60,370 bases of DNA from an uncultured Alphaproteobacteria bacterium (GTDB lineage: Bacteria > Pseudomonadota > Alphaproteobacteria > SP197), in contig CALIUG010000048.1 in the NCBI GenBank assembly GCA_938048755.1, positions 1 to 60,370 on the forward strand. The letters are read 5' to 3'. The first letter of the stretch is position 1. Each line of letters opens with the position of its first letter. Position numbers and translations under genes: made by a program. Of the stretch, positions 2 to 38,368 are shown piece by piece. Under the pieces are notes generated by a model. The model saw only the letters and a program-made list of their open reading frames with translations. It was not told the origin of the DNA and did no database searches.

Positions 2-901
2 AAGCAGTATCAGATGGCTCGGCGTTTCGACGACAAACGCCATCCCTGCATGCGCTACTTCATTGGTGACGTGCGCGATGTTGATCGCCTGGAAATGGCC
101 ATGCGCGATGTCGATATCGTGGTGCATGCTGCCGCGCTGAAGCATGTGCCGGCAGCCGAATACAATCCGTTCGAGTGCATCATGACGAACATCCATGGTG
201 CCGAAAATGTCGTGAAGGCCTCCCTGCGCACCGGGGTCCAGCGCGTCGCCGTGCTCTCCACGGACAAGGCGGCCAGCCCGATCAACCTTTATGGCGCCTC
301 CAAGCTGGCCTCTGACAAGATCTTCGTGGCGGCCAACAACCTCTCGGGCGATGACGGTGCGTCGTTCTGCGTCGTGCGTTACGGCAATGTGCTGGGTTCG
401 CGCGGCAGCGTCCTGCCGCTCTTCCGCAGTCTGAAGGCCAACAAGGCCGATCATCTCCCCATCACCGATCCGCGCATGACGCGTTTCTGGATTACCCTGG
501 AACAGGGCGTGGCCTTTGTGCTTTCGAGCCTGGCCATGATGCAGGGTGGTGAAATCTTCGTGCCCAAGATCGCAAGTTCGCTGGTCACCGATCTCGCCCA
601 GGCGGTCGCGCCGGAACTGCCCATGCACAATGTCGGCATTCGTATTGGCGAGAAGCTGCACGAGGTGATGATCACCGAGGATGATGCCCGCGCGACGCTG
701 GAACTCGATGACCGGTTCGTGCTGTGCCCCGGCTATGACAACTGGAGTGCGGCCGCCTATGACGCCATGGGTGCGAAAAAGGTTTCCGAAGACTTCCGCT
801 ATGCCAGCAACCAGAACAGCGACGTGCTTGATGCCGAAGGCCTCGCCGCTCTGGTTGAACACGCCGATGCCCATGCCAAAGGCCAGGAGGCCAGCCTATG
901 A
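2..901 (+). CDS. pseB: UDP-N-acetylglucosamine 4,6-dehydratase (inverting), PseB/FlaA1 type; 5' end outside window
   Basis: Frame open from base 2 (KQYQMARRF). Motifs GDVRD, HAAALKHVP, STDKA, YGASK, RYGNVLGSRGSV, MTRFWITL, GEKLHEVM. Confidence 0.92.
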   Translation, partial: KQYQMARRFDDKRHPCMRYFIGDVRDVDRLEMAMRDVDIVVHAAALKHVPAAEYNPFECIMTNIHGAENVVKASLRTGVQRVAVLSTDKAASPINLYGASKLASDKIFVAANNLSGDDGASFCVVRYGNVLGSRGSVLPLFRSLKANKADHLPITDPRMTRFWITLEQGVAFVLSSLAMMQGGEIFVPKIASSLVTDLAQAVAPELPMHNVGIRIGEKLHEVMITEDDARATLELDDRFVLCPGYDNWSAAAYDAMGAKKVSEDFRYASNQNSDVLDAEGLAALVEHADAHAKGQEASL

Positions 902-2073
902 AACACTGCACCCGTTGCGTGATGCCTGAGACTTCCGAGACGCTGGCGTTTGACGGTGGCGGTGTGTGCACGGTCTGCCAGCAGGTTGAATTCAAGCAGA
1001 CAGGCATCGATTGGGATGCCAAGAAAGCCGAGTTTGCGACGCTGGTCGAAGAAGTGCGCGGCAAGCACGATTACGACTGCATCGTGCCGTTCTCCGGCGG
1101 CAAGGATTCAACCTACACGCTCTGGTATCTGGTAAAGGAACTGGGTCTCAAGCCGCTGGTCGTGCGTTTTGACCACGGCTTCATGCGCTCGACCCTGATC
1201 GAGAACAACATCCGCACCTTCCGAAAGCTGGGTTGCGACGTGATGACCTTCACGCCCAACTGGCAGGTCGTGAGGAAACTGATGTTCGAAGCATTGCGCC
1301 GTCGTGCCGATTTCTGCTGGCACTGTCACACCGGCATCTTTGCCTATCCCATGCGTATCGCGGTCGAGAAGCAGGTGCCGCTGGTGATCTGGGGCGAACC
1401 CAGCGCCGAATACGCCTCGTTCTACGGCTATGACGAAGACGAGGAGGTCGACGAGCGGCGTTTCAACACGCTGGTCAATCTGGGCATCAATGCCGAAGAC
1501 ATGGTCGGCATGCTCGACGACACCATCGGCGACTATCCCGTCACCGCACGTGATCTCAAGCCCTATACCTATCCACCGCTGGCCGACCTGCGCCGCCTGC
1601 GCATGCGTTCGGTGTGTCTGGGTTCCTACATTCCATGGGATGTCAGGAAGCAGGTTGATCTGATCAAGGAAGACCTTGGCTGGCAGGGCGAAGAGGTCGA
1701 GGGTGTGCCGCCCGAGTATGACTACGAGAAGATCGAGTGTTTCATGCAGGGCGTGCGTGACTACATCAAGTATCTCAAGCGCGGCTTTGGACGCACGGCC
1801 CATCTGGCTTCGATCGACATCCGCAACGGTCGTCTCAGCCGTGACGAGGGCGAGGCCCTGGTTGCCGCCTATGACGGCAAACGTCCGGGCTCGCTGGATG
1901 TCTTCCTGCATTACCTCGGCATCTCTGAAGCCGACTTCATGGAAATCGTGAACGGTCATGTCGTCAGTCCGCACGAGCCGCTGGATCTCGAATGGGCGCA
2001 GGCCAATGCAATGGAACAGAAGCCATGGGACTTCGAGCAGTGGACCCGTGTCGGCGGTGCCGACGAGGCCTGA
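898..2073 (+). CDS. N-acetyl sugar amidotransferase (PseA/WbpG/WbuX-like, PP-loop ATPase)
   Basis: N-terminal CxxC...CxxC, YDCIVPFSGGKDS PP-loop, KRGFGR, IRNGRLSRDE. ATGA overlap with pseB. Confidence 0.88.
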   Translation: MKHCTRCVMPETSETLAFDGGGVCTVCQQVEFKQTGIDWDAKKAEFATLVEEVRGKHDYDCIVPFSGGKDSTYTLWYLVKELGLKPLVVRFDHGFMRSTLIENNIRTFRKLGCDVMTFTPNWQVVRKLMFEALRRRADFCWHCHTGIFAYPMRIAVEKQVPLVIWGEPSAEYASFYGYDEDEEVDERRFNTLVNLGINAEDMVGMLDDTIGDYPVTARDLKPYTYPPLADLRRLRMRSVCLGSYIPWDVRKQVDLIKEDLGWQGEEVEGVPPEYDYEKIECFMQGVRDYIKYLKRGFGRTAHLASIDIRNGRLSRDEGEALVAAYDGKRPGSLDVFLHYLGISEADFMEIVNGHVVSPHEPLDLEWAQANAMEQKPWDFEQWTRVGGADEA

Positions 2074-2094
2074 TCCAGTCCGGCGACTGAGACC

Positions 2095-2715
2095 ATGAAT
2101 GTCACCATTGTCGATTACGGAGCAGGCAACCTGCGTTCGGTCGCTAATGCCTTCTATCTGGCAGGCGCCGATCCGGTTCTTGCGAGCAACCCCGACGAGG
2201 TTGCCGGCAGCGAACGCATCGTGCTGCCCGGCGTCGGAGCCGCCGGACCCGCCATGCTTGCCCTGCGGCAGTCGGGCATGGCCGAGGCGCTCAACATCGC
2301 GCGCATGCGCGGCACCCCCATCATGGGCATCTGTCTCGGCATGCAGATGATGGCCGAACGCCTGGAAGAATATGGCAGCCATACCGGTCTGGGTTGGATC
2401 CCAGGCCATGCAGGGCCCATCGAAGACAACACCAATCTGCCCTGCCGCGTGCCCCATACCGGGTGGAGCGAGATTTCCACGACCCCTGCGGCTGATGGGC
2501 TGATCGGGCGCGGTGCGCGTGACCGCTTTGTCTATTTCTGTCACAGCAACTGTCTCATCACGGATGAAGAGGTCGTTGCCGCGACGGTCGAATGCGGTGG
2601 CCCCATCGTCGCGGCGATTTGTCATGAGACACTGTTTGCCGTGCAGTTCCACCCTGAGAAAAGCCAGCTTGGCGGTGAGCGCGTCCTGCAGGGTTTTCTG
2701 GACTGGAAGCCCTGA
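2095..2715 (+). CDS. HisH-like glutamine amidotransferase subunit (WbuY-like)
   Basis: IVDYGAGNLRSV, LPGVG, GICLGMQ (catalytic Cys), QFHPEKS (His-Glu). Confidence 0.9.
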   Translation: MNVTIVDYGAGNLRSVANAFYLAGADPVLASNPDEVAGSERIVLPGVGAAGPAMLALRQSGMAEALNIARMRGTPIMGICLGMQMMAERLEEYGSHTGLGWIPGHAGPIEDNTNLPCRVPHTGWSEISTTPAADGLIGRGARDRFVYFCHSNCLITDEEVVAATVECGGPIVAAICHETLFAVQFHPEKSQLGGERVLQGFLDWKP

Positions 2716-2719
2716 GGCC

Positions 2720-3475
2720 TTGCCGCAGAACCGCATCATTCCAAGCCTGCTTCTGCGTGGCGGACGCCTGGTGAAGGGCGAGGGCTTTCGAGATCACCGC
2801 GACGCCGGCGCGCCGCCTTCAACAGCACGCGCCCACAATGCACAGGGTGCCGACGAACTGGTGGTGCTCGACATCGACGCCAACCGCGAAGCGCGCGCGC
2901 CTGACCTTGAGATCTTTCGCGCCATCGCCTCGGAAATCCAGATTCCGCTCACCGTCGGCGGTGGTGTCCGTGATGTCGCAACAGCGCGCCAGGCCATGGA
3001 TGCCGGAGCCGACAAGATCATGGTGACGACAACCGCGCTGGACCGGCCCGAACTCATCACCGAACTTGCCGAACTGTTCGGACGTCAGGCCGTCGTACTG
3101 GGTGTTGATGTCCTGTTGAACGACGACGCTGGAACCCTGTTTGACCATCGCACCGGCAAGACGGCAGGCACTGGCGACTGGCTTGGCTGGATGCGTGACG
3201 GCATCCGCCGCGGCGCCGGTGAGATCCGTTTGATGGCGGTGGATCGTGAAGGCGCGCGCTCCGGCCTTGCCCTCGATCTTCATGCGCGGGCGCGTACTTC
3301 GGTCAACGTCCCGATCATCCTGGAAGGTGGTGCCGGAACGCTCGATCATCTGACCCAGGCCATGGCTGCTGGCGCGGATTCGCTGGCGCTGGGCACCATG
3401 CTGGTCTTTTCTGACAACAACCTCGTGAAGCTGAAACGGGTACTGGCGCAAGCCGGACACCCGATGCGCCCATGA
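2720..3475 (+). CDS. HisF-like cyclase/ammonia-channel subunit (WbuZ-like)
   Basis: Probable TTG start at 2720 (LPQNRIIPSLLL...LVKG), GADELVVLDI, IPLTVGGGV, GAGEI, VPIILEGGAG. The ORF-track start at 2513 overlaps the HisH-like gene and is unlikely. Confidence 0.85.
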   Translation: MPQNRIIPSLLLRGGRLVKGEGFRDHRDAGAPPSTARAHNAQGADELVVLDIDANREARAPDLEIFRAIASEIQIPLTVGGGVRDVATARQAMDAGADKIMVTTTALDRPELITELAELFGRQAVVLGVDVLLNDDAGTLFDHRTGKTAGTGDWLGWMRDGIRRGAGEIRLMAVDREGARSGLALDLHARARTSVNVPIILEGGAGTLDHLTQAMAAGADSLALGTMLVFSDNNLVKLKRVLAQAGHPMRP

Positions 3476-4440
3476 AGAACCGGCTTGTCGGCGTATTGGG
3501 TCTGGGCTCCATCGGCATGCGCCATGCGCAGAACCTGATGGCGCTTCATTGTGATGTGATCGGCTTCGATCCCGATCCGGCAAGCCGTGCGCGTCTGGCT
3601 GCGGCCGGAGGTCGTGTTGCCGAAGACCGTCAGGCCGCGCTGAAGGCCTGTCAGGCCGTGGTCATCGCCACCCCCAATGCCAGTCACGCCGGCGATCTTG
3701 ATGCTGCGATCGGTGCAGGCCGTCATGTCTTTGCCGAGAAGCCGCTGGCACACGATGCTGCCGGACTCGACGCCTTGCTGGCCAAAGCAGCCCAAAGCAA
3801 TCTCACGGTCTTTGCCGCCTTCATGCTGCGTTACCACCCCGTGGTCGAGCGCATGAAGGCGCTGCTCGATGACGGTGCCATTGGTGAGGTCTGGGGCATG
3901 CGTGCTGCCTGTGGTTCGTGGCTGCCCTCCTGGCGGCCCGGCCAGGATTACCGTCAGGGTTATGCCGCCGACCCGGTCACGGGCGGGGTCATTCACGATA
4001 TCGTCCATGAGATCGATCTGGCCTGTCATCTGCTGGGGCAGGGCAGGGTTGCCTTCTGTGTCGCGCGCAGCAGCGGTCAGCTTGATATGCCCAGCGAGGA
4101 CATCGCCGATCTGGTCCTTGCCCATGCCGGCGGGGCATCCAGCAGCCTGCATCTCGACTATCTCGCCCGTCCCCCCGTGCGCCAGGGCAGTGTCTCGGGT
4201 ACGCGGGGCACCCTGTTCTATGACCTCAATGCCAGGACCCTGCGTCATCTCGATGCCGAGGGTTCCCAAGTGGAAGCCATGACTGCGCCCGGGGCATGGG
4301 CGGACGACTATGTTGCCGAGATGCAGGATTTTCTGGACTGCCTGGACGGCCAATCCGCGCCGCGTTGTGATGGCGCAGAAGCCTTGCAGGTTCTCCACAC
4401 CACCCTTCAGGCACGTGCTATGGCAGGGCTGCCCCAATGA
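3472..4440 (+). CDS. Gfo/Idh/MocA family NAD(P)-dependent oxidoreductase
   Basis: GLGSIG Rossmann motif, IATPNASH, EKPL, WRPGQDYR, GGVIHDIVHEID. Confidence 0.88.
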   Translation: MKNRLVGVLGLGSIGMRHAQNLMALHCDVIGFDPDPASRARLAAAGGRVAEDRQAALKACQAVVIATPNASHAGDLDAAIGAGRHVFAEKPLAHDAAGLDALLAKAAQSNLTVFAAFMLRYHPVVERMKALLDDGAIGEVWGMRAACGSWLPSWRPGQDYRQGYAADPVTGGVIHDIVHEIDLACHLLGQGRVAFCVARSSGQLDMPSEDIADLVLAHAGGASSSLHLDYLARPPVRQGSVSGTRGTLFYDLNARTLRHLDAEGSQVEAMTAPGAWADDYVAEMQDFLDCLDGQSAPRCDGAEALQVLHTTLQARAMAGLPQ

Positions 4441-6488
4441 CGACGCTGGCGATCATTCAGGCCCGCATGGGCTCGGCCCGCCTTCCCGGCAAGATGCTGA
4501 TGGATCTGGCGGGACGCCCGGTTCTGGCCCATGTCGTTGCGGCCGCACGCGCCATTGCCGGGGTCGACAAGGTTGTGGTGGCGACCTCCGTGGAAGTCGG
4601 CGACGATGCCCTGGCGCAATGGTGCGATGACCATGATGTCGCCTGCTTCCGTGGCAGCGAGAAGGATGTGCTCGAACGGTTTACCGGAGCCGCGCGCGCC
4701 CATGGTGCCGATGTGGTGTTGCGCCTGACGGGCGATTGCCCGCTGCTCGACCCCGAGATTGCCGGGCAGGTTCTGGCCCTGCTGATCGAAGGTGGTGCTG
4801 ACTATGCCAGCAACGTCGATCCGGCAAGCTGGCCTGATGGCCTCGATTGTGAAGCCATGACCATGGCGGCCCTGGAAACGGCTGCTGCCGAGGCACGCCG
4901 TCCTTCGGACCGTGAACATGTCACGCCGTTTCTGCGCAACACCAAGGCGCGCTTCTCGACCCTGAACCTGACCTGTTCTGTTCCCGGTCTGGCGTGGCAT
5001 CGTTGGACGCTCGACAAAGCCGACGACCTGGCCTTCCTGGAAAAGGTCGCGGCACATCTGCCCGGGGATCGTCCGGTTTCGATGACAGCCGTGCTCGCGA
5101 TCCTGCGTGACCATCCCGAACTGGTGCACGGCAACCGTGCCGCACGGAACGAGGGGTTTGATGCCTCGGTTGCCGCCGAACCGCTGGACCGAGAGCGTAC
5201 ATACGAGGCCTCGCACAAGATGCTGACCCGGGCCGAAGCGGTCGTGCCGTTGGGCTCTCAGACCTTCTCCAAGAGCCGTATCCAGCTTCCGCCGGGCGAA
5301 TCACCTCTGTTCCTGACCCACGGCGAAGGCGGCCGGGTCTGGGATGTCGATGGCAACGAATATGTCGACATGGTCAGTGGCCTGCTGCCGGTCGTGCTGG
5401 GTTATCGCGACCCTGATGTCGACCGGGCCGTGCGTCGTCAGCTCGATTGTGGCATCAGCTTCAGTCTGGCGACCAAAATGGAAAGCGATCTGGCCGAGCG
5501 CCTGATCCGTCATGTGCCCTCGGCCGAGATGGTCCGGTTTGGCAAGAACGGCACCGATGCCACCAGTGCCTGCATCCGCCTGGCGCGCGCGTTCACAGGG
5601 CGCGACCGGATCGCGCTGTGTGGCTATCACGGCTGGCAGGACTGGTATGTCGGTGCGACGACACGCAACCGCGGCATTCCAAAGGCCGTGAGCGAGCTCT
5701 CGCACATGGTGGCCTATGGTGACCTTGAAGCCGTCGACCAGTTGATGTCGCAACATCCAGGAGAGTTCGCCTGCCTGATCCTGGAGCCGACCAACGTGGT
5801 GGAGCCGCCCGAGGGTTATCTCGAAACCCTGCGTGATCTCGTGCACAGCCATGGCGCCCTCCTGGTGTTTGATGAGGTCATCACCGGATTCCGCTGGGCG
5901 CTGGGCGGGGCGCAGGCCTATTACGGCATCACGCCGGACCTCTCGGCCTTTGGCAAGGCCATGGCCAACGGTTTGCCGATTTGCGCCGTCGTCGGGCGCG
6001 CGGACATCATGATGGTGATGGAGGAAATCTTCTTCTCCTCGACCTTCGGCGGCGAGGCGCTTTCGCTTGCCGGAGCCATTGCCACCGTCGACAAGCTGGA
6101 AGACGAGCACGTGCCGGCCCTGCTGTGGCAGAAAGGTGCGCAGTTGATGGCCGATGCCCGCGCCATCACGGCGCGCCATGGCGTCGAGGATGCGTTGGGT
6201 CTGGTCGGGTCCGCGCCCTGGGCCATCCTCTCCTATCGCGATCATGAGGGCGGCAGCGCGGCGGCCGTGAAGACGCTGTTCCTGCGTGAAATGATCGCTT
6301 CGGGCGTGCTGATCAACGCCAGCCACAATGTCAGCTTTGCCCATGACCGGGCCGACATGGCCCGGGTCCTGGCTGCCTGGGATCATGCCGCGGGCGTGCT
6401 GGCCGGGGAGCTTGCACGCGGCGGACTCGACCAGCGGCTCGACAACGGCCTTATCCGCCCGGTCTTTCAGGTCCGGCCCAGCGCGTGA
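4437..6488 (+). CDS. Fusion: SpsF-like cytidylyltransferase + class III PLP aminotransferase (glutamate-1-semialdehyde aminomutase-like)
   Basis: N-terminal IQARMGSARLPGK, GSEKDVL, RLTGDCP, REHVTP. C-terminal WDVDGNEYVD, KNGTDA, FDEVITGFR, FGKAMANG (PLP Lys). Confidence 0.88.
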   Translation: MTTLAIIQARMGSARLPGKMLMDLAGRPVLAHVVAAARAIAGVDKVVVATSVEVGDDALAQWCDDHDVACFRGSEKDVLERFTGAARAHGADVVLRLTGDCPLLDPEIAGQVLALLIEGGADYASNVDPASWPDGLDCEAMTMAALETAAAEARRPSDREHVTPFLRNTKARFSTLNLTCSVPGLAWHRWTLDKADDLAFLEKVAAHLPGDRPVSMTAVLAILRDHPELVHGNRAARNEGFDASVAAEPLDRERTYEASHKMLTRAEAVVPLGSQTFSKSRIQLPPGESPLFLTHGEGGRVWDVDGNEYVDMVSGLLPVVLGYRDPDVDRAVRRQLDCGISFSLATKMESDLAERLIRHVPSAEMVRFGKNGTDATSACIRLARAFTGRDRIALCGYHGWQDWYVGATTRNRGIPKAVSELSHMVAYGDLEAVDQLMSQHPGEFACLILEPTNVVEPPEGYLETLRDLVHSHGALLVFDEVITGFRWALGGAQAYYGITPDLSAFGKAMANGLPICAVVGRADIMMVMEEIFFSSTFGGEALSLAGAIATVDKLEDEHVPALLWQKGAQLMADARAITARHGVEDALGLVGSAPWAILSYRDHEGGSAAAVKTLFLREMIASGVLINASHNVSFAHDRADMARVLAAWDHAAGVLAGELARGGLDQRLDNGLIRPVFQVRPSA

Positions 6489-7699
6489 CGATGTCCGGGT
6501 CAAAACCCTTCATGCCTTACGGGCGTCAGAGCATCGATCAGGCCGATATCGATGCGGTGGTGGCCGTGCTCGAGAGCGACTGGCTGACAACCGGCCCGGC
6601 GGTCGACCGGTTCGAGGAAGCCGCACGCGAGGTGACCGGCGCGCGACACGCGCTGGCCTGCTCCAACGGTACGGCCGGGCTTCATCTGGCAACCCTTGCG
6701 TTGGAACTGGGGTCGGGTGATGCCCTGATCGTACCCACCCTGACCTTCCTGGCGACAGCCAACTGCGCACGCTACGTCGGTGCCGAGGTCATCTTTGCCG
6801 ATGTCGACCCCGAGACAGCCCTGATCGAGCCCCATCATCTTGAAGAGGCGCTTGCCCGTGCCGGTGACCTGCGGCCCGTCGCGGTGGCACCGGTGCATTT
6901 CGGTGGCCAGGTTGCCGACCTTCAGGGGCTGTCAGCCGTCGCCCGGACTTCGGGCCTGCATGTCATGGAAGACGCCTGTCATGCGCTGGGCGGAACCTAT
7001 ACGCATGACGGCAAACAGGTTCGCGTGGGAGCCTGCGCCGACAGCGATCTTGCGGTGTTCTCCCTGCACCCGGTCAAGACCGCGACCATGGCTGAGGGCG
7101 GCATTGTCACCACCAACGACGACCGCCTTGCCGAGCGGGTTGCGCGCCTGCGCACCCACGGCACCATTCGTGAACCCTCGGGCTGGAGCGACCGTGACCA
7201 GGGATTCACCGATGGGATGGCGAACGCCTGGTACTACGAAATGCCAGAGGTCGGCCTGAACTATCGGGCTAGCGATCTTCATTGCGCGCTTGGTGCGACG
7301 CAGCTTTCCAGGCTGAATCATTTCGTCACGCGCCGGGCGGAACTGGTCGCGGCCTACGATGCCGCGCTTGCTCCGTTCTCGCCCGCCATCCGTCCTGTGG
7401 GGCGTCGTCCGGATCAAATGCCGGGCTGGCATCTCTTTATCGCGCTCATTGATTTCGAAGCGTTGGGCACGACCCGTGCCGCGGTGATGGCGGCGCTGCG
7501 TGAAGAGGGGATCGGCACACAGGTGCATTACCTCCCGGTGCATCGTCAGCCCTACTATCGGGACCGCTATGGCAGCCTTGATCTTCCCGGTGCCGATGCC
7601 TTTTACGAACGCTGCCTCAGCCTGCCGCTGTTTCCCGGCATGGAAGACGATGACGTCCGCCGCGTGGTCGAGGCACTGACAAGGGCCTGCGGGCTGTGA
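6485..7699 (+). CDS. pseC: UDP-4-amino-4,6-dideoxy-N-acetyl-beta-L-altrosamine transaminase (DegT family)
   Basis: PYGRQSID, SDWLTTGP, EDACHALG, SLHPVKTAT.AEGG, WYYEM..GLNYR, IGTQVHYLPVH. Start may be ATG 6491. Confidence 0.88.
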   Translation: MTMSGSKPFMPYGRQSIDQADIDAVVAVLESDWLTTGPAVDRFEEAAREVTGARHALACSNGTAGLHLATLALELGSGDALIVPTLTFLATANCARYVGAEVIFADVDPETALIEPHHLEEALARAGDLRPVAVAPVHFGGQVADLQGLSAVARTSGLHVMEDACHALGGTYTHDGKQVRVGACADSDLAVFSLHPVKTATMAEGGIVTTNDDRLAERVARLRTHGTIREPSGWSDRDQGFTDGMANAWYYEMPEVGLNYRASDLHCALGATQLSRLNHFVTRRAELVAAYDAALAPFSPAIRPVGRRPDQMPGWHLFIALIDFEALGTTRAAVMAALREEGIGTQVHYLPVHRQPYYRDRYGSLDLPGADAFYERCLSLPLFPGMEDDDVRRVVEALTRACGL

Positions 7700-9180
7700 A
7701 ACAACCGCTCATTGTTTTCCGCTGTGACGCAGGCCCGGTGCACGGAACCGGGCATGTGCGGCGGTGCCTTTCGCTTGCCCGTGTCTTTCGGAATGCTGGC
7801 TGGCGCGCCGTGTTCATGACCGATCTCGCCAGTCCCGAATATGTTCCCGAACTCGAGGCCCAGGGGGACGATCTTCTCCTGATCAATGGCGACGATCCCG
7901 TTGATGAGCAGGCCATGCATCTCCTGGCGCCAGAATCAGAGGGGGTCCAGGTGCTGGTCGCGGATAACTACGAACTCGATGCCCGCTTCGAGCGTGCGTG
8001 CCGGCCCATGACCGATGTTCTGGTGGCGCTCGACGACCTTGCCGACCGCCCGCGTGATGCTGATGTCCTCTTCGACTCGGCCCTGGGTCGTGAAGCATCC
8101 GACTATGCCGGTCTGTTGCCGGAATCCTGCAGGGTGGTGACGGGACCCGGTGTTGCCCTGCTCGCCCCTGATTTCATGGAAATGCGCGCGACCTCGCTCC
8201 TGCGCAGGGAAACACCGGGGCTGGAGAGAATCATGATCAGCCTGGGTGGTGTTGACCCTGGGCCTGTTCTCGAGCGCCTTGTCGATGGTCTCGCCCTGGG
8301 CGGATTCCAGGGCTGGCTGACGGTGGTGCTGGGCCAGGAACTGGAGGTCGCGACCCGATTGCGCGCGCGTTCCGGCGATCCCTTCAAGCTGGAAGTGTCC
8401 GTGGGCGTGCGTGACATGGCGCAGCGGTTGTTCATGACCGACCTTGCCATCGGTGCCGGCGGTTCGTCGGCCTGGGAGCGGTGTGCTTTGGGTGTTCCGA
8501 GTCTTGTGGTCGTCACGGCCCACAATCAGGATTTCATTGCCAGGGGCCTCGCCGAAGCAGGGGCCGTGCAGCTTCTGGGCTGGCATGAAGACGTGACAGC
8601 GGATTCTGTGGCCGCTGCCTTCCGAAATCTTGCGGACGATCCTGCCGGGCTGGCAAAGTTTTCCCAGAATTCAGCCGACCTGTGTGATGGGCGTGGTGGG
8701 GAACGCACGTGGCTTTCCTGTCTGGAGGAGGTCGTGCACGCAGGTCTGGTGACGTTGCGACTGGCAACGCAGGCCGACGAAGACATCGTGCTTGCTTGGC
8801 AGAACGCACCGCAGACGCGGCGCTACGCACACAGTGTCGTCGTGCTGACCCGTGAGGAACATCATGCCTGGTTTGCCGCACGCCTGACCGATCCGGACTG
8901 TCTGCTTTGCATCATCACCTGTGACGGCCAGGACGCAGGTTCGCTGCGTCTTGATCGCAAGGGAACAGGCAGTGACCGGATCGTCTCGATCTACCTTGCG
9001 CCCGAGGCCTATGGCGGGGGTGTGGCGACCGCAGCGCTCACGTTGGCGCAGCGCCTGGCGCCGGGCTGGCGCATGTTGGCCGAGGTTCTGGCCGAGAACG
9101 AGCCCTCACACCGCCTGTTCCAGCGCGCCGGGTTCCGCAGCGATGGCGAAGGTACCTATATCTGGGAGGCTGCCGCATGA
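7696..9180 (+). CDS. pseG: PseG-like UDP-sugar hydrolase fused to a C-terminal GNAT (PseH-like) domain
   Basis: [51 protein letters not shown]. Then a GNAT domain ([26 protein letters not shown]). Confidence 0.85.
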
Positions 9181-10238
9181 GCGAGACGACCGTCACCATC
9201 GCCGGACGGCCCATCGGGCCGGGCCATCGCCCCTATGTCATTGCCGAGCTGTCAGGCAACCACAATGGCGAGCTTTCACGCGCCCTGGAGATCATGGAAG
9301 CCTCGGCGAACGCCGGTGCCGATGCGATCAAGCTGCAGACCTATACGGCTGACACCATCACCATCGATTGCGATGCCGACGACTTCACGATCAAGGGCGG
9401 GTTGTGGGACGGACGCACGTTGTATGAGCTCTATCAGGAAGCCCACACCCCCTGGGACTGGCATGAAGCGTTGTTTGCCAAGGGCCGGGAACTGGGTGTC
9501 GCGGTCTTTTCGTCGCCCTTCGACGATACCGCCGTGGATTTTCTCGAAGGGTTTGATGCCCCGGCCTACAAGATCGCGTCGTTCGAGGCGGTCGATCACG
9601 AACTGATCGCCAAGGCCGCGTCGACCGGCAAGCCGATGATCATGTCGACCGGCATTGCCGACAGCGACGAGATTGCCGAGGCGGTTGCCGTTGCGCGTGG
9701 TGCCGGCTGCCGGGAACTGTTGCTGCTCCACTGTGTCAGCGGGTATCCCGCTCCGGTCGGCGACAGCAATCTTGCAACGATCCCCGATATGGCCGCGACC
9801 TTCGGCACCGCCGTGGGCCTTTCGGATCACACGCCGGGCACGGCGGTTTCCGTCGCTTCGATTGTTCTGGGCGCCTGCGCCATCGAGAAACACGTGACCC
9901 TGCGCCGGTCCGATGGCGGCCCGGACGCTGCCTTTTCGCTGGAGCCTGATGAGCTTGCCGTGCTGTGCCGCGATGTCGCCATGGCCTGGGAGTCGCTGGG
10001 CAAGATCGATTACGGCCTCAAGTCGAGCGAGCAGGGCAACCGTGCGTTTCGCCGCTCGATCTATGCCGTGGCCGATCTTGCTGCCGGTGAGGTGCTCACG
10101 CGCGAGAATGTCCGTGTCATCCGTCCAGGCCACGGTCTTGCGCCCAAGCATCTGCCGGCCGTTCTGGGTCGTACTGCACGGCGTGCCATCAAACGCGGCA
10201 CGCCCATCACAACTGATCTGCTGGATGAAACGTCATGA
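9177..10238 (+). CDS. pseI: Pseudaminic acid synthase (NeuB family with SAF domain)
   Basis: [73 protein letters not shown]. Confidence 0.92.
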
Positions 10239-11518
10239 GCAACCTGGCGCTTCTTGGTGGCAAGGCTGAAGTCTGGGGTGCGCTGCGCCCGTTCCGTGCT
10301 CTGGGTGATCGTGAACGTGCGCTGGTCAACGAGGTCATGGATGGCGGATTGCTCTCGGGCTTCTACGGTTCCTGGGGCGATGAGTTCTGGGGCGGACCCA
10401 TGGTCAAACGCCTGGAAGGCCTGTGGTGCGACGCATTGGGCGCCCGCCATGTCGTCAGCGTCAACTCCGCGACCTCCGGCCTTTTTGCTGCCGCCGGGGC
10501 CATCGGGCTTTCTCCCGGTGACGAAGTGATCTGCCCGCCCACCACCATGTCGGCAACTGCTGTCGCGCCGATGTTCTATGGTGCGGTGCCGGTGTTCGTC
10601 GATATCGAGGATGAAACCTTCTGCCTGGATGTCGCTGCCACAGAAGCGGCCATCGGGCCCAAGACCAGGGCAATCTTTGTTGTCAACCTGTTCGGCCATC
10701 CCGCCCGCCTTGCCGAGCTTCGTGCTCTTGCCGACCGTCATGGCATTTTTCTGGTGGAAGACAATGCGCAGGGGCCGTTTGCCATGGAGAACGGCAAGCC
10801 GGCTGGCACCATCGGTCACATCGGCGTCTTCAGTCTGAATGTGCACAAGCACATCCAGACCGGGGAAGGCGGCCTTTGCGTCACCGAAGATGAAGACCTT
10901 GCCCTGCGCATGCAGCTGATCCGCAATCACGGTGAAAACGTCGTGGGCGACGTCGAGGTCGAGGACATCGCGAACACACCGGGCCTCAATTTTCGCATGA
11001 CGGAGCTTTCCGCTGCCGTAGGCGTGGGTCAGATCGAACGGGCGGATGAGATCATCGGCGGGCGCGTCGCCATCGCCGAACACCTGACCGCAGGCATCGG
11101 CGAGATCGAGGGGTTCAAGGTTCCCGCCGTACGGGCCGACTGCCGTCACGTCTATTATGTCTGGACCGCTGATATGGACCCCGATGCCCTTGGCATCCGC
11201 CGTGAAACCCTGCTGGCTGCACTGCATGCCGAAGGTGTGCCGGCTGCGGGTGGTTATGTGCCGCCGCTCTATCGCCTGCCCATGTTCCGCGAACGCCGTG
11301 CCATCGGGCGTGATGGGTTTCCGTTTGCCGGGTCCAACCGGTCCTATGCCGACGGCCTGTGTCCCGTTGCCGAGCGCCTGCATGAAACCGGTTTCGTGAC
11401 CTATGAGATCTGCGGCTTTGATCCCGATGCCAAGCAGCTCGACCAGATGGTTGCTGCCTTCCACAAGGTGTTCGCGGGTCGTGAGCAACTCGCCGCCTGG
11501 GAAAGGGATCAGGCGTGA
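10235..11518 (+). CDS. DegT/DnrJ/EryC1/StrS family aminotransferase
   Basis: [33 protein letters not shown] (PLP Lys), GLNFRMTE. Confidence 0.9.
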
Positions 11519-12264
11519 GTCTGCCGCGCACCGTTGCCAGCATCGAGGCCCGCATGGGCTCCAGCCGCTTACCCGGCAAGGTGCTGATGGATGTCGGCGG
11601 AAAGCCCGCCCTGACACGGTTGGCGGAGCGCCTGCGTTGTGTGGAACTGCTGGACGATATCGTGCTCGCCACCACGACCGCGCCCGGTGATGACGCGCTG
11701 GAAGCCTGGGCCCGGGACGAGGGGGTGGCCTGCTACCGGGGCAGCGAGGAGGATGTTCTCGCCCGCGTGGTCGAAGCCCAGCAATCGGTTGGTGGTGAAC
11801 TGGTTGTGGAGGTCACGGGCGATTGCACCTTGATGCCGCCCGATGTCATCACGCTGGGTATCGAGACCTTCCATGCCAACCGCGCCGATGTGGTGAGCAA
11901 TTGCGGGCCTGTGCAGACCTTTCCCATGGGTGCAGATGTCCAGGTCTTTCCGCTGGCCCTGCTGGCCGATGTTGCGGCGACCGTCGATGACCCTGCGGTG
12001 CGCGAACATGTTTCGCTCCACTTCTATGACAATCCCGACCGCTACAGGATTCACAACATTGTCGCGCCGACGCTCTGGCATCAGCCGGACTGGCGTCTGC
12101 AGCTCGATTATGAAGAGGATCTGGCGTTCATCCGTGCGGTCTATGCCGAACTGGAGCCGGTGCATGGTCCTGTCTTCGGACTGCCCGAGCTCATGAACCT
12201 GCTCCATGCGCGCCCCGACCTGGTGGCGCTCAACATCGACTGCGAAGAAAAGGCGGCGCGGTGA
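11515..12264 (+). CDS. SpsF-like cytidylyltransferase (standalone)
   Basis: IEARMGSSRLPGKVL, GSEEDVLAR, TGDC, REHVS, RLQLDYEEDL. Confidence 0.87.
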   Translation: MSLPRTVASIEARMGSSRLPGKVLMDVGGKPALTRLAERLRCVELLDDIVLATTTAPGDDALEAWARDEGVACYRGSEEDVLARVVEAQQSVGGELVVEVTGDCTLMPPDVITLGIETFHANRADVVSNCGPVQTFPMGADVQVFPLALLADVAATVDDPAVREHVSLHFYDNPDRYRIHNIVAPTLWHQPDWRLQLDYEEDLAFIRAVYAELEPVHGPVFGLPELMNLLHARPDLVALNIDCEEKAAR

Positions 12265-13259
12265 GCGGGTTCGTGACGGCGCTCTTTGGTTGTGGCCAGA
12301 TCGGTGCGGGATATGCCGCGGATCCGCGCATGGCAGAGCACTACCGGTATGCCAGCCACACCCAGGTTCTGGCCGAACATCCCGCCTATGACTGGGTCGC
12401 TGCCGTGGACCCGGCTGAGAGCCATGCACAGGCATGCGCCGAGCAATTTGGCGTGGTTGCCTCTGGAGATGTCGCCGGCCTTTCCGATCGGGAAGCGATC
12501 GAAGTCGCGGTGCTGGCGACGCCGCCGGGGACGCGCCGGGCCTTAATCGAAGCGCTGCCCAACCTCAAAGCCGTGCTGGTCGAAAAACCGCTGGGTGCCG
12601 ACCTTGCCGAGGCCAGGGAGTTTGCCGCGCTCTGCAAGGCCCGGGGCCTTGTTGTTCAGGTCAATCTGCCGCGCCGTGCCGATGTCCGGCATCGCGACCT
12701 TGCCGAGGGTGGATTGGCCCGCGCCATCGGTGATGTACAGGGCGCCTTCATGATCTACGGCAACGGGCTCCACAACAACGGTACGCACATGGTGGACCTT
12801 GCACGCATGTTGCTGGGCGAAGTGGCGGACGTGAGCGTTCCTGCCGGTGCGACATCCCATGCCGGTAGCCCGCTCGATGGGGATGGCAACATGCCGTTCT
12901 CCCTGGTCATGCAGTCGGGGGTCACGGTGATGGCCCTGCCGGTGGGGTTTGATCACTACCGGGAGAATGCGCTCGATCTCTGGGGCACGGACGGCCGGTT
13001 GTCTCTCGTCAGCGAAGGTCTTCGTTTGTGCCGCTTCGAACGGCGCGAGAACCGCACGACCACGGGTGCCTTTGAAATCGCCAGCGACGACCCGGTCGTC
13101 GAAACCACGTCCATGGGTGAGGCGCTTTATGCCGTCCATGATGATCTGGCCCATGCGCTCCAGTCGGGGACCACGCCGGCCAGCCCGCTTGATTCGGCGC
13201 TGGAGACTTCCGCGGTAATCGAAGCCATTCATGAACAGGCCCTTGCGGTGGCGGCCTGA
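12261..13259 (+). CDS. Gfo/Idh/MocA family oxidoreductase
   Basis: GCGQIG, LATPP, VEKPL, VNLPRR, GLHNNGTHMVDL. Confidence 0.85.
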   Translation: MSGFVTALFGCGQIGAGYAADPRMAEHYRYASHTQVLAEHPAYDWVAAVDPAESHAQACAEQFGVVASGDVAGLSDREAIEVAVLATPPGTRRALIEALPNLKAVLVEKPLGADLAEAREFAALCKARGLVVQVNLPRRADVRHRDLAEGGLARAIGDVQGAFMIYGNGLHNNGTHMVDLARMLLGEVADVSVPAGATSHAGSPLDGDGNMPFSLVMQSGVTVMALPVGFDHYRENALDLWGTDGRLSLVSEGLRLCRFERRENRTTTGAFEIASDDPVVETTSMGEALYAVHDDLAHALQSGTTPASPLDSALETSAVIEAIHEQALAVAA

Positions 13260-14362
13260 TGCGCATGCTGGCCTATGTCGAAGATCCCGGCGCGGCAAAC
13301 TGGTTCGTGCCCATGGTGCGGGCCATGCCCGATGAGGACATCACCCTCCTGGCCGCAGGCGCAGCGCTCCGTTATCTGCGCGACCGTGGCCTGGAAGCCG
13401 CAAACGTCGGAGAAGATGCAAGGGCAGACGATCTGTTGGTCCAGTATGCGCCGGATCTCGTCGTGACCGGAACGTCGGAGAATCTCGAGAGCCTGGGTCT
13501 TGCACTGATCGATGCCGCGCGGAATGCCGGGATTCCCAGTGCTGCGCCGGTTGATCAGACGGCCAATGCGCAACATCGGTTCCGTGGTACCAGTGACGAT
13601 CCGCTTCGCCATGTGCCCGACCTCGTCATGGTCGCCGATGATATAGCCTTCCGGGCGTTTGCAGGCCTTGGTGTTTCCGAGGCCGCCATCGCGGTCACCG
13701 GCAATCCGCATCATGACCGGGTGCTTTCGGCCGCCGCAGGCTTCTCAGAGCAGGGCCGTGAGCCGCTGCGCCGAGAGACCGTGCCCGGGGCCGCAACGCG
13801 TCCGGTGATCGTCTTCCTTGCCGAGGTCGGCTACGCCGTGAATCCGGAAGCCGACCACTGGAACGCGACCCTCAACTTTGAAGGACGCGACGGCACGGCA
13901 CCGCGGTGTGCCCGCATGCTCGAAGAAGTGCTGGATGCCGTGGAGCAGCTCTCGTCACGGCCCTGGTTCGTCCTGCGTCTGCACCCAAAGAACGCCCAAG
14001 AGGAGTTCGCGGCCTATCGGCAGGAAATCGATCAGGTCAGCACAGGTGGTGATCCCCTGGCACTGGTCTGGGCTGCCGATATGGTCGTCGGCATGTCGGG
14101 CTCCCTTCTGGAAGAGGCCCACCTGATGGGCCGTCCCTGCCTTTCCATCCTGCCCCATGCGGCGGAACGCGACTGGCTGCCCGGGATCGCTTCTGGCGCC
14201 ATTCCCGCCGTTGAGGACCGGGCTGCGCTCCACACACATCTGTCCGGGCCCTGGCAGGCGGCAGAAGTGACCTATCGGGCCGGTGGCGCAGGTGTTGCGA
14301 TGGCCGAGGCGCTGCATCGGCTTGTGACGGCACATCACGGCGCAGCAAGGCAGACGGCATGA
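13259..14362 (+). CDS. GT-B-fold protein, putative ulosonate or phosphotransferase (HP motif)
   Basis: DPGAAN, PDLVMVAD, VTGNPHHD, LRLHPKN, ADMVVGMSGSLLEEAHLMGRP match a GT-B C-terminal pattern. Specific family not established. Confidence 0.6.
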   Translation: MRMLAYVEDPGAANWFVPMVRAMPDEDITLLAAGAALRYLRDRGLEAANVGEDARADDLLVQYAPDLVVTGTSENLESLGLALIDAARNAGIPSAAPVDQTANAQHRFRGTSDDPLRHVPDLVMVADDIAFRAFAGLGVSEAAIAVTGNPHHDRVLSAAAGFSEQGREPLRRETVPGAATRPVIVFLAEVGYAVNPEADHWNATLNFEGRDGTAPRCARMLEEVLDAVEQLSSRPWFVLRLHPKNAQEEFAAYRQEIDQVSTGGDPLALVWAADMVVGMSGSLLEEAHLMGRPCLSILPHAAERDWLPGIASGAIPAVEDRAALHTHLSGPWQAAEVTYRAGGAGVAMAEALHRLVTAHHGAARQTA

Positions 14363-15096
14363 CCGGCTCCATGCTCAGGGTTGCGGCGCTCACGACACAG
14401 GACGGCATTCTGGGCGGTCGCATTCTGCGCGGCATGCTGGATGCGGGTGTCGTGCTGGATGCCGTGTTGCTCGATCCAACCCCGTGCAGCGCGCGTGAAC
14501 GCGAGATTCATGCGCTGCGCACAGATGACCGGTTGCCGTCTCTGTCTCTGGCACTCCTGGACGACGCAGGGGTCGAATGCATGGAGGTCGAAGACCACAA
14601 TGCGCCTGGTGCCATCGCGTTGGTGCGTGAGCGCGGCATCGACCTTCTGGTCAACGCTGGCACGCCGCGGATTGTCAGCCCTGCTTTGCTGGATGCTCCA
14701 ACCCTGGGCGTTCTCAACTGCCATCCCGGACGGCTTCCCGATTATCGCGGATCCTGCGCTGTGGAACACGCCATCTTGGAAGAACAACCGGTTGCCAACA
14801 CCGTTCATCTGATGAGCGAAGGCATCGATGAAGGTGCGGTTCTGGAGGTGCGCGAGGTCGATCTGACCGGTGTTGCGACGTATCCCGACCTGCGCGTGGC
14901 GACCTATGTGCAGGGGTTCGCGTTTCTGGGAGCCTGCGTTGCAGCCCTGCAGACCGGCGAGAGAACACGGGACGATTTTATCGAGCAGGGTGCGGGGCGC
15001 TGGAACGGACCGGTCGACGACGCGACCATGTCGGAGGTCGAGGCGCGTGTGGCCGATGGTCGCTATGCCCCTCTGCAGGCGGTCTCGGTGGCATGA
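14359..15096 (+). CDS. Formyltransferase-family protein (putative sugar N-formyltransferase)
   Basis: LNCHPGRLPDYRG and GIDEG motifs of the N10-formyl-THF-dependent formyltransferase fold. Confidence 0.82.
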   Translation: MTGSMLRVAALTTQDGILGGRILRGMLDAGVVLDAVLLDPTPCSAREREIHALRTDDRLPSLSLALLDDAGVECMEVEDHNAPGAIALVRERGIDLLVNAGTPRIVSPALLDAPTLGVLNCHPGRLPDYRGSCAVEHAILEEQPVANTVHLMSEGIDEGAVLEVREVDLTGVATYPDLRVATYVQGFAFLGACVAALQTGERTRDDFIEQGAGRWNGPVDDATMSEVEARVADGRYAPLQAVSVA

Positions 15097-15629
15097 AGCT
15101 GGCCGAACCCCTGATGACCGAACGGCTGATGTTGCGAACGCTCGAGTCCGCGGATGCCGGTGGCGCCTATCTCGCCTGGATGAACGATCCCGAAATCATG
15201 CGCTACACCGAATCCCGGTTCGCCAGCCATGATGCTGCAGCGCTTGAAGGGTTCATCGAAGCGATGAATGCCAGCGCGGACAATCTCCTGTTGGGGCTGA
15301 TCACGGCCGATCAGGGCAATCACATCGGCAACATCAAGCTTGGCCCCATCGACGGGCACCATCAGCGTGCCTGGATCGGCATCATTATCGGAGACCGCGC
15401 ACGCTGGGGGCAGGGGCTTGCCAGCGAAGCCATCGACGCGGTTGCGCATCACGGGCTGACCGATCTGGGCCTGCGCCGTATTGCTGCCGGCATCTATGCC
15501 GATAACCAGGGTTCCGTCGGTGCGTTTGCGAAGGCCGGGTTTCATGAAGTTGCGCGGTTGCCCGGCTGGAGTCTGAGCGAGGGCGTTGCCACCGATGACG
15601 TCATCATGATGCGGGGAGGAGACCTGTGA
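15093..15629 (+). CDS. GNAT N-acetyltransferase (RimJ/RimL-like)
   Basis: YLAWMNDPE, HIGNIKLGPID, IGIIIG..RWGQGLA, NQGS..AFAKAGF. Confidence 0.87.
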   Translation: MKLAEPLMTERLMLRTLESADAGGAYLAWMNDPEIMRYTESRFASHDAAALEGFIEAMNASADNLLLGLITADQGNHIGNIKLGPIDGHHQRAWIGIIIGDRARWGQGLASEAIDAVAHHGLTDLGLRRIAAGIYADNQGSVGAFAKAGFHEVARLPGWSLSEGVATDDVIMMRGGDL

Positions 15630-25345: not shown

Positions 25346-25365
25346 ATCGAGACTTGGCGCAAACC

Positions 25366-26604: not shown

Positions 26605-26608
26605 CGCC

Positions 26609-28408: not shown

Positions 28409-28433
28409 CGGTGTATGGACCGGGAGAACAGCG

Positions 28434-30044: not shown

Positions 30045-30079
30045 TCCAACGCCGTTTACGCTTAGAATCTGGAAAACCC

Positions 30080-38358: not shown

Positions 38359-38368
38359 GCAACATCTG

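Follow-up and report, generated by a model that had tools for sequence, protein, structure and literature searches.

Introduction

Nonulosonic acids are nine-carbon sugars that coat flagella, capsules and lipopolysaccharides and affect how cells move, adsorb phages and are recognised by the immune system. The chemical variety known so far is small, with six stereoisomers and some acyl variants (PMC5595891). Here we analyse two groups of putative nonulosonic acid tailoring genes in contig CALIUG010000048.1 (assembly GCA_938048755.1) of an uncultured alphaproteobacterium; the whole stretch of 60,370 nucleotides is called the window below. The closest described systems come from Acinetobacter baumannii. 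In A. baumannii KL49 the cytidylyltransferase ElaB, the Gfo/Idh/MocA protein ElaA and the short-chain dehydrogenase/reductase (SDR) ElaC have been proposed to yield 8-epi-legionaminic acid (8-epi-Leg). ElaA is proposed to oxidise C8 of CMP-Leg5,7Ac2 (CMP, cytidine monophosphate) and ElaC to reduce the 8-keto sugar, and the cited passages support this scheme with mutants and crystal structures (PMC13656337). According to the cited part of a second study, based on nuclear magnetic resonance of the capsule, A. baumannii prophages encode EpaA (a CTP_transf_3 domain fused to an aldo/keto reductase, AKR) and the SDR EpaB, which together convert pseudaminic acid (Pse) to 8-epi-Pse (PMC12053666). EpaB is 41.5% identical to AciE, and AciE replacing AciB, a different short-chain dehydrogenase, in the acinetaminic acid module gives the C8 epimer (PMC5595891). 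This relation suggests that oxidation by EpaA is the task of its AKR half, making it the counterpart of ElaA, which would explain why AKR and Gfo proteins can be interchanged before SpsF-type cytidylyltransferases.

The window contains the same pairing twice. Two triads, Gfo1 with the fusion protein SpsF1::AT3 upstream and DegT2, SpsF2 and Gfo2 downstream, flank core genes of Pse synthesis. Like in ElaABC, in both triads the cytidylyltransferase and the Gfo gene adjoin each other beside nonulosonate synthesis genes. Unlike in ElaABC, an aminotransferase (class III upstream, DegT family downstream) stands in the place of the SDR ElaC, so that an extra amination, ketone to amine, would be the simplest extension of the known scheme. 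By this analogy we favour, at slightly less than even confidence, the reading that both modules are lines which activate, oxidise and transaminate a nine-carbon sugar, likely at C8.

Results

Genes were called by scanning 53 open reading frames (ORFs) of the window with Pfam and NCBIfam profiles at their curated cut-offs. The assembly is 92.7% complete. The first-pass annotation of this DNA had described an upstream triad of a Gfo/Idh/MocA protein and an SpsF::class III aminotransferase, and a downstream triad of a DegT aminotransferase, SpsF and Gfo/Idh/MocA protein, bracketing pseC-pseG-pseI. Pfam domains bear out the composition of both triads, and the genes between them are PseC, PseG fused to a GNAT domain, and PseI, all above the NCBIfam cut-offs (Table 1).

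The AlphaFold model of Gfo1 (predicted local distance difference test score, pLDDT, 92) gives matches that are generic for the family (scyllo-inositol dehydrogenase, GnnA, 1,5-anhydrofructose reductase, WlbA and 8w9s) and do not indicate the substrate. The best PDB match by sequence is also 8w9s ('NAD-dependent dehydrogenase', 64 bits, 26% identity). In the fusion protein that follows, the cytidylyltransferase domain SpsF1 occupies residues 5-174 and the class III pyridoxal phosphate (PLP) aminotransferase domain AT3 residues 254-678. The best NCBIfam match of the whole protein is PRK06209, 398 bits with a cut-off of 486. AT3 is closest to glutamate-1-semialdehyde aminomutases (226 bits to 6w80) and stays below the HemL equivalog (TIGR00713, 243.6 bits against 527.3). 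Alignment to solved aminomutases places its FGK lysine on their catalytic lysine and its FDEV motif on their PLP-binding aspartate. Judged by these motifs, AT3 is probably a competent PLP enzyme of the aminomutase subfamily, yet not HemL. The ARMGSxRLPGK and GDCPL motifs are retained in both SpsF1 and SpsF2, and AT3 and the SpsF domains look catalytically competent.

Relatives of SpsF1::AT3 are numerous: 7989 of 8000 scored candidates have E <= 0.001. The genome-neighbourhood survey that had been suggested for both triads ties them to nonulosonate and module genes, respectively. For the upstream triad we used 80 loci from named genome records, 57 of them at least 18 kb long; they come from Alpha-, Beta- and Gammaproteobacteria, Acidobacteriota, Actinomycetota, Chloroflexota, Bacillota, Bacteroidota, Planctomycetota and two archaeal metagenome-assembled genomes. 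A NeuB-family gene is present in 52 of the 57 long loci, PseB, PseC and PseI together in 37, and PseG as well in 31. The usual gene order is PseB-PseC-[oxidoreductase]-SpsF(-)AT3-PseG/GNAT-PseI, with SpsF and AT3 fused or split. The start of SpsF could be placed in 62 loci, and in 48 of these our ORF filter gave an upstream ORF: an AKR in 29, a Gfo/Idh/MocA protein in seven, NeuB in four and other proteins in eight (two GNAT, one PhyH-like in locus L051, one methyltransferase, four with no family). A tblastn search found a Gfo1 relative directly upstream in 5 of the 14 loci that gave no filter-passing ORF. Two unrelated oxidoreductase families, AKR and Gfo, thus occupy one slot before SpsF. 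Gene fusions lead to the same grouping. Among the 120 longer SpsF2 relatives in the matches listed, 69 carry Gfo, CTP_transf_3 and Aminotran_3 in a single protein of about 1028 amino acids, 39 are SpsF-AT3, six SpsF-Gfo and two fused to a methyltransferase. In the two triple fusions that were checked, the domain order Gfo-SpsF-AT3 is the gene order of the window. AT3 orthologues (E <= 1e-90) were found in 19 genomes, counting the own one, out of 401 sampled from the phylum. The upstream triad recurs widely as a unit within pse clusters and is not a chance grouping.

The downstream triad extends further than first described: it belongs to a larger conserved module which reaches through 13259-15629 and includes g13, a formyltransferase-like gene and a GNAT gene. 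DegT2 has PseC as its best NCBIfam match (196 bits, below the cut-off of 423.5), and its PDB matches are 8gyh (179 bits), perosamine synthetase (163), KdnA (5k8b, 144) and WbpE (130). The best PDB match of SpsF2 is 6oew ('Cytidylyltransferase', 100.7 bits). A Gfo2-type domain (28% identity to Gfo2, E 3e-22) forms the C-terminal half of an SpsF-Gfo fusion, P0246. The protein g13 is modelled with pLDDT 94, and the model is closest to UDP-GlcNAc 2-epimerases, NeuC and CapG (VIA-align Z 23.1-24.8 versus at most 21.2 for other glycosyltransferase-B folds). Foldseek gives E-values of about 1e-13, with UDP-2,3-diacetamido-2,3-dideoxy-glucuronic acid 2-epimerase among the top matches. The profile alignment of g13 with E. 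coli WecB is weak (hhalign probability 1.7%), with HP(K)N and SG..EEA-like motifs lining up; in this weak alignment an invariant Asp of g13 falls on WecB Glu117. A search of about 5.8 billion clusters gave 130 relatives of g13 at E <= 1e-5, all of them unnamed or 'hypothetical', and five of the 401 sampled genomes have g13, again counting the own one. In one relative, P0218, g13 is fused to a GNAT domain, an architecture like that of PseG::GNAT in the window.

Conservation of this module was followed in 80 metagenome loci with a g13 relative, 44 of them with at least 3.4 kb upstream and 48 with at least 1.8 kb downstream. The 44 evaluable loci include 43 with DegT2, 41 with SpsF2 and 42 with Gfo2, and 40 have all three. 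Downstream of g13, GNAT follows in 34 of 48 loci and a formyltransferase in five (at least one of the two in 37); the formyltransferase-like protein and GNAT of the window (14359-15629) are probably the N-acylating partners of the module. The order is DegT2-SpsF2-Gfo2 in 34 loci and SpsF2-Gfo2-DegT2 in nine, and SpsF2 adjoins Gfo2 in all 43 module loci. Directly upstream of the module, where 33 loci could be evaluated, we found NeuB in 12, a further SpsF-like cytidylyltransferase in 10 and other genes in 11. Tandem SpsF-type sequences occur in P0241 (516 amino acids, two CTP_transf_3 stretches within one protein), in P0242 and in L141 (5593-8934). In L141 (11660-16092) the module is followed by a tetratricopeptide repeat protein with a weak glycosyltransferase-9 match, fliK and flgD, which indicates that some copies of the module serve flagellin glycosylation; the arrangement of the repeat protein and the glycosyltransferase is presumably FlmG-like. 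The downstream triad is not a chance grouping either: it forms the centre of a module of five genes, DegT2-SpsF2-Gfo2-g13-GNAT, which is rarer than the upstream unit. Full-text literature searches found no publication on this module.

Comparison of the two triads does not point to a recent duplication of one of them, and we reject this possibility: Gfo1 and Gfo2 can hardly be aligned (E 0.17), the SpsF1 and SpsF2 domains share 36% identity, and AT3 and DegT2 belong to different Pfam families of aminotransferases. A cytidylyltransferase, an oxidoreductase and an aminotransferase appear to have been brought together twice from unrelated parts. This independent assembly of the same three activities is the main argument for a shared logic of both triads.

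The first-pass annotation had noted that no canonical PseF is adjacent, and this holds for the whole assembly, where the best match to PseF (TIGR03584, cut-off 205.7) has 104.9 bits and lies in a third CTP_transf_3 gene at 33134-33853. With this profile the SpsF1 domain reaches 31.4 bits. In the 18 other genomes with AT3, the PseF score is above the cut-off in one, 186-203 bits in six, 101-153 bits (PseF/NeuA-like) in four and does not exceed 52 bits in seven. In loci L188-L190 a PseF-like gene is nearby, AKR and AT3 are still present and the SpsF-type gene is missing. From these patterns we conclude that the SpsF domain is probably a nonulosonate cytidylyltransferase interchangeable with PseF, whose presence would explain the absence of PseF. 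Since the AKR/AT3 pair persists with a PseF-like cytidylyltransferase, we also conclude that the oxidoreductase and AT3 are likely the constant core of the upstream unit. For the same reason, a simple replacement of PseF by SpsF::AT3 was rejected as a full explanation.

Cytidylyltransferases outnumber synthases. There are three CTP_transf_3 genes and two NeuB genes in the cluster of the window, with no further NeuB in the assembly. A 35-kb cluster with both modules in another genome of the same class, G152, likewise has two NeuB and three cytidylyltransferases. Cytidylyltransferases other than PseF have been met before, as far as the cited passages go. Bacillus subtilis spsF is required to transfer legionaminic acid and not to make it (PMC7439481), an SpsF-like::AKR gene in a Vibrio pse cluster has been read as the reason for the lack of NeuA (PMC7371886), and Caulobacter crescentus FlmC 'resembles cytidylyltransferases' without homology to PseF (PMC7591256). 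The signals of TIGR03584 and NF004856 in a Caulobacter vibrioides control genome do not discriminate the architecture of FlmC. A reading of rkpN and rkpO of the Sinorhizobium rkp-3 region as SpsF-like and HemL-like genes was rejected, since the passages cited give 46% identity to PseF for RkpN and describe RkpO as the PseG homologue (PMC7591256). A tblastn match was also obtained on pNGR234b (H29).

The first 20 kb of the window are a single plus-strand operon (Table 1) in which adjoining, translationally coupled genes share 1-4 nt throughout. Base 1 of the window is the contig edge, which cuts the 5' end of the PseB gene. PseB and three genes of acetamidino type (2-3475) extend the set known from the first-pass annotation in the upstream direction; the WbuX/HisH/WbuZ trio (898-3475) is presumed to form the acetamidino group. 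The GNAT domain fused to PseG presumably fills the role of PseH. PseH itself (TIGR03585, cut-off 93.1) is not reached by this domain (34.5 bits) or by the GNAT at 15093-15629 (24.9 bits); the GNAT fold is present and may fill the role in spite of the low score. Beyond Gfo2 the operon runs on through g13, the formyltransferase-like, GNAT and PhyH-like genes.

Table 1. Genes of the plus-strand operon at the left end of the window, with profile scores in bits (score followed by curated cut-off where available)
Feature	Position	Strand	Profile evidence
PseB (UDP-GlcNAc 4,6-dehydratase, inverting)	2..901	+	TIGR03589 417 > 407.75; profile positions 47-322 of 324
WbuX-type N-acetyl sugar amidotransferase	898-2073	+	TIGR03573 351 > 203
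HisH-like	2095-2715	+	TIGR01855 165 > 105
WbuZ/HisF-like	2513-3475	+	TIGR03572 208 < 299.7; family match from residue 72 on
Gfo1, Gfo/Idh/MocA NAD(P) oxidoreductase, first gene of upstream triad	3472..4440	+	PF01408, PF22725, PF02894
SpsF1::AT3 fusion, 683 amino acids	4437..6488	+	PF02348 105; PF00202 153
PseC aminotransferase	6485-7699	+	TIGR03588 471 > 423.5
PseG (UDP-sugar hydrolase)::C-terminal GNAT	7696-9180	+	TIGR03590 201 > 153.6 (residues 6-283); PF13302 (residues 352-481)
PseI pseudaminic acid synthase	9177-10238	+	TIGR03586 501 > 340
DegT2, DegT/DnrJ/EryC1-family aminotransferase, 427 amino acids	10235..11518	+	PF01041 263
SpsF2, second SpsF-type cytidylyltransferase	11515..12264	+	PF02348 72
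Gfo2, divergent Gfo/Idh/MocA oxidoreductase	12261..13259	+	PF01408 64
g13, putative divergent UDP-GlcNAc 2-epimerase/NeuC fold	13259..14362	+	PF02350 23.9 < 30.6
Formyltransferase-like	14359-15096	+	PF00551 50.7
GNAT	15093-15629	+	PF13302 91
PhyH-like dioxygenase	15626-16549	+	weak match, 21.9 against cut-off 22

Other genes accompany the downstream module. A 565-amino-acid protein without a Pfam match (16550-18247) recurs with it in L099, L104, L131, L164 and L175. In the ESM Atlas this protein neighbours clusters in which 24-61% of members are Capsule_synth (KpsC/KpsS-like), and the equivalent position in G152 is taken by a Capsule_synth-like gene of 513 amino acids; it may be a transferase using the CMP-sugar. 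The following gene (18244-19644) encodes a GSCFA-family protein, and in L175 both GSCFA and the PhyH-like gene are conserved with the module. A PhyH-like gene also accompanies the module in L099, lies beside g13 in L115 and L135 and, as mentioned, precedes SpsF in L051. The G152 cluster (L096 and L191, G152:C5:198000-232900) has three formyltransferase-like genes, a polysaccharide deacetylase and a PseG without fused GNAT, which suggests that it makes N-formylated or free-amine nonulosonates, as reported for Kuenenia stuttgartiensis (preprint 10.64898/2026.04.20.719630).

The second NeuB of the window belongs to a third set of ulosonic acid genes (28965-33853), made up of Gfo3, NeuB::cupin (519 amino acids), a haloacid dehalogenase-type phosphatase, a methyltransferase and the cytidylyltransferase with the highest PseF score in the genome (33134-33853). 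This set may represent a route through a phosphorylated substrate, similar to that of ketodeoxynononic acid (Kdn). Locus L175 has relatives of both Gfo3 (60% identity) and NeuB::cupin (58%) on the downstream side of the module, and two more g13-positive genomes (G218 and G066) have NeuB ORFs of 528-538 amino acids. Between the operon and this set (21559-28961) are genes for a PRK05849-type phosphoenolpyruvate-utilising protein (798 bits > 501) and for NTP_transf_3, sulfatase/phosphotransferase-fold and adenosine phosphosulfate kinase-like proteins, which may resemble the phosphoramidate set Cj1415-Cj1418 of Campylobacter jejuni. Further on, two asparagine-synthase-type amidotransferases (38276-40258 and 47504-49393) stand amid glycosyltransferase and methyltransferase genes, with a GDP-mannose 4,6-dehydratase nearby (42713-43681). 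Taken together, the 50 kb resemble a single island for a surface glycan.

Discussion

We start from what the sequences show: the genes present, their intact catalytic motifs, their conservation and fusions, and the lack of an above-cut-off PseF. For the substrates, the carbon that reacts, the sequence of reactions and the amination itself, we picture the following. Pse would be made by the ordinary route, by PseB, PseC, the GNAT in the role of PseH, PseG and PseI. Two independent modules would then activate and tailor it, each made up of a CMP-transferase of SpsF type together with an NAD(P) oxidoreductase and a PLP-dependent aminotransferase. In the upstream line the SpsF1 domain would make the CMP-sugar, in which case PseF is not needed, Gfo1 would oxidise a free secondary hydroxyl of the nine-carbon sugar (by analogy with ElaA most likely that at C8), and the fused class III aminotransferase would convert the ketone to an amine. 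This would give a 5,7,8-triamino (pentadeoxy) nonulosonate. SpsF2, Gfo2 and DegT2 of the downstream module would repeat the sequence of activation, oxidation and transamination and give a second, distinct CMP-nonulosonate from the same synthase. GNAT and the formyltransferase would acylate an amine, and g13 with GNAT could be an alternative PseG/PseH-like pair working on the nucleotide-hexose precursor. The more specific version, in which both modules aminate the activated sugar and yield two nonulosonates with an acylated or formylated third amine (of the 5,7,8-triamino type or at C4), seems possible to us but rather doubtful.

Several points weigh against the tailoring of a nine-carbon sugar by both modules. 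For this organism the scheme is deduced from genes, in its chemistry and its expression alike. Hardly any triamino nonulosonate has been reported, although about 5% of the sampled genomes have the AT3 module. A PseF/NeuA-like gene (101-211 bits) coexists with the AT3 module in 11 of the 18 other AT3-positive genomes. AKRs usually reduce carbonyls, and a reductive role fits equally well as an oxidative one. The characterised Gfo enzymes of nucleotide-hexoses (WbpB, WlbA, GnnA) oxidise C3, and the fold of Gfo1 matches GnnA no worse than other members of the family. DegT2 scores highest with C4-aminotransferases (PseC and perosamine synthetase, compared with WbpE). The modelled fold of g13 and the g13::GNAT fusion argue that part of the downstream module may work on a nucleotide-hexose. 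Finally, in the cited part of the Caulobacter study, six genes including FlmC and no oxidoreductase rebuilt C. crescentus flagellin glycosylation in E. coli (PMC7591256). If FlmC belongs to the SpsF::AT3 fusion family, the amination would be at least dispensable in Caulobacter.

The idea of the first-pass annotation that extra-aminated nonulosonic acids are made therefore keeps part of its ground. The units are real, conserved and tied to nonulosonic acid clusters, with a precedent in Ela and Epa; the downstream set, on the other hand, also holds g13 and GNAT. The company of g13 and GNAT and their fusion point to at least one nucleotide-hexose step, which makes either a parallel hexose branch or a route similar to that of WbpB/WbpE/WbpD/WbpI conceivable.

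A parallel branch at the level of the hexose, without a third amine, would give a stereo- or acyl-isomer of a 5,7-diamino nonulosonate. DegT2 would replace PseC on the keto-sugar made by PseB, with other stereochemistry or another acyl fate, the GNAT or formyltransferase would replace PseH, and g13 would replace PseG or LegG, with or without inversion at C2. PseI or another NeuB would condense the product, and SpsF2 and Gfo2 would activate and then epimerise or reduce it. All roles of a Leg-type pathway save the dehydratase would be covered in this way. The modelled NeuC/2-epimerase fold of g13 with its HP(K)N and SG..EEA-like motifs, the resemblance of g13::GNAT to PseG::GNAT, the best family match of DegT2 (PseC) and the position of the G152 module, adjoining its own NeuB and a further cytidylyltransferase, speak for such a branch. 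It leaves Gfo2 without a partner that consumes its keto product, however, and it turns the twofold assembly of three activities from unrelated parts into a coincidence. The own genome has no spare synthase, since the other NeuB is the cupin fusion with its own cytidylyltransferase, and the match between g13 and WecB is weak. On balance we consider this branch unlikely, though for the downstream module it is a serious alternative.

The aminotransferase and oxidoreductase could also act away from the nine-carbon sugar, on an unusual N-acyl donor or a small aglycone, with the SpsF domains simply replacing PseF. AT3 resembles enzymes of small amino-aldehydes, AKRs commonly reduce small carbonyls, and Pse and Leg carry many unusual N-acyl groups. 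The six genes that, as far as the cited passages report, were enough for Caulobacter flagellin glycosylation in E. coli (PMC7591256) are in line with this too. A triple-domain polypeptide as in 69 of the 120 listed relatives would, in contrast, imply consecutive steps on one substrate that includes the sugar of the cytidylyltransferase. The oxidoreductase/AT3 pair stays within pse clusters across many phyla, and the Ela and Epa precedents work on the sugar itself. We regard a role off the sugar as improbable.

Still less probable is that Gfo2, DegT2, GNAT and g13 form a route like that of WbpB/WbpE/WbpD/WbpI to a UDP-2,3-diacylamido-2,3-dideoxy-hexose of GlcNAc3NAc or ManNAc3NAc type. The hexose would then be a separate glycan sugar, and SpsF2 only the nonulosonate activator of the cluster. 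The four enzyme classes match (Gfo dehydrogenase, DegT aminotransferase, N-acyltransferase and 2-epimerase fold), the 2,3-diacetamido-2,3-dideoxy-glucuronic acid epimerase is among the top Foldseek matches of g13, and GnnA and WlbA are among the fold matches of Gfo1 type. SpsF2, however, sits between DegT2 and Gfo2, adjoins Gfo2 in every module locus and is found fused to a Gfo2-type domain; the module loci would hold one cytidylyltransferase beyond need. WbpE is a weaker match of DegT2 than the C4-aminotransferases, and neither a UDP-GlcNAc 6-dehydrogenase nor a left-handed beta-helix (LbH) N-acetyltransferase was seen among the 53 ORFs scanned. A 3-aminated hexose as the substrate of NeuB was rejected on chemical reasoning, because the hexose C3 ends up as the nonulosonate C6, which bears the ring oxygen; such a route therefore leaves SpsF2 unexplained.

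Operation in reverse, where the class III aminotransferase would remove an unacylated amine (e.g. at C7) and the AKR or Gfo protein would reduce the ketone to a fusaminic-type 5-amino-7-hydroxy-9-deoxy nonulosonate, is hard to credit, for although AKRs are typically reductases, transaminases are reversible and 5-amino-3,5,9-trideoxy nonulosonates exist (to judge from a title in the reference list of PMC5595891), a ketoreductase on the PseB product would be a simpler way to the same sugar, PseC and the acetyltransferase are kept in the same clusters, and the scheme is without precedent.

If the tailoring of a nine-carbon sugar by amination is true, nonulosonic acids would gain a new substitution pattern. 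A function would be assigned to a fusion with thousands of relatives which is now annotated as 'glutamate-1-semialdehyde aminomutase/SpsF', and enzymes would become available for the chemoenzymatic synthesis of difficult CMP-sugars. Triamino sugars similar to sialic acids could then be a large overlooked class of microbial surface sugars, made by a reusable cassette that activates, oxidises and transaminates. The upstream line is found in about 1 in 20 sampled Pseudomonadota genomes, as well as in Acidobacteriota, Actinomycetota, Bacillota and archaeal records. The question raised is what an aminotransferase does in the position where Ela and Epa have a reductase, and it is directly testable.

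Comparison with known systems

The canonical CMP-Pse pathway shares PseB, PseC, PseG and PseI with the window, all above curated cut-offs. Beyond it, the window has two extra aminotransferases, two oxidoreductases, two SpsF-type cytidylyltransferases and a NeuC-like protein. The cytidylyltransferases of B. subtilis (SpsF) and C. crescentus (FlmC) are not PseF either, and the cited passages mention no aminotransferase or oxidoreductase partner for them (PMC7439481, PMC7591256). In the passage cited, flmC is followed directly by flmD, which encodes the PseG homologue (PMC7591256); likewise SpsF-AT3 is upstream of PseG in most of the surveyed loci.

The enzymes WbpB/WbpE/WbpD/WbpI of UDP-ManNAc3NAcA synthesis and GnnA/GnnB of UDP-GlcNAc3N synthesis are of the same classes as Gfo2, DegT2, GNAT and g13. 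They act on C3 of a UDP-hexose without a cytidylyltransferase, whereas SpsF2 is an integral and sometimes fused part of the window module, and the acyltransferase of the window is a GNAT or formyltransferase while that of WbpD type is an LbH enzyme. The pair KdnB/KdnA of 8-amino-Kdo synthesis had been offered as an analogy for the conversion of a hydroxyl to an amine, which fails on the side of KdnB. KdnB is an iron-dependent alcohol dehydrogenase that works with the DegT-type transaminase KdnA, and the scan of the 53 ORFs gave no match to the family of KdnB. The likeness of DegT2 to KdnA is lower than to several other DegT enzymes. For the presumed product, a parallel may be Flexibacter (Tenacibaculum) maritimus, where the extra group of a pentadeoxy nonulosonic acid is reportedly an 8-amino group. 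The cited passages place this sugar in the O-antigen (PMC4052302).

ElaABC and EpaAB remain the nearest relatives in logic. ElaB is PseF-like (its structure was solved with the PseF model 6IFD) and the sugar is Leg, whereas the cytidylyltransferases of the window are of SpsF type and its sugar is Pse. No SDR adjoins either triad; the SDR-fold proteins among the 53 ORFs are PseB and those at 35217-36194 and 42713-43681 (epimerase/dehydratase). Like in EpaA, an SpsF-like domain is coupled to an AKR in a Pse context in 29 of the 48 scanned loci of relatives. Unlike EpaA/EpaB, the window has Gfo proteins and no AKR or SDR partner, and the relatives with an AKR pair it with AT3 and not with an SDR. 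In a phage collection, no EpaA-like gene was found with an Aeromonas AKR as query, and SpsF1 as query gave one match of 25% (a marine virus record). If the analogy holds, the window would carry an aminotransferase variant of the tailoring by cytidylyltransferase and oxidoreductase that is known from Ela and Epa.

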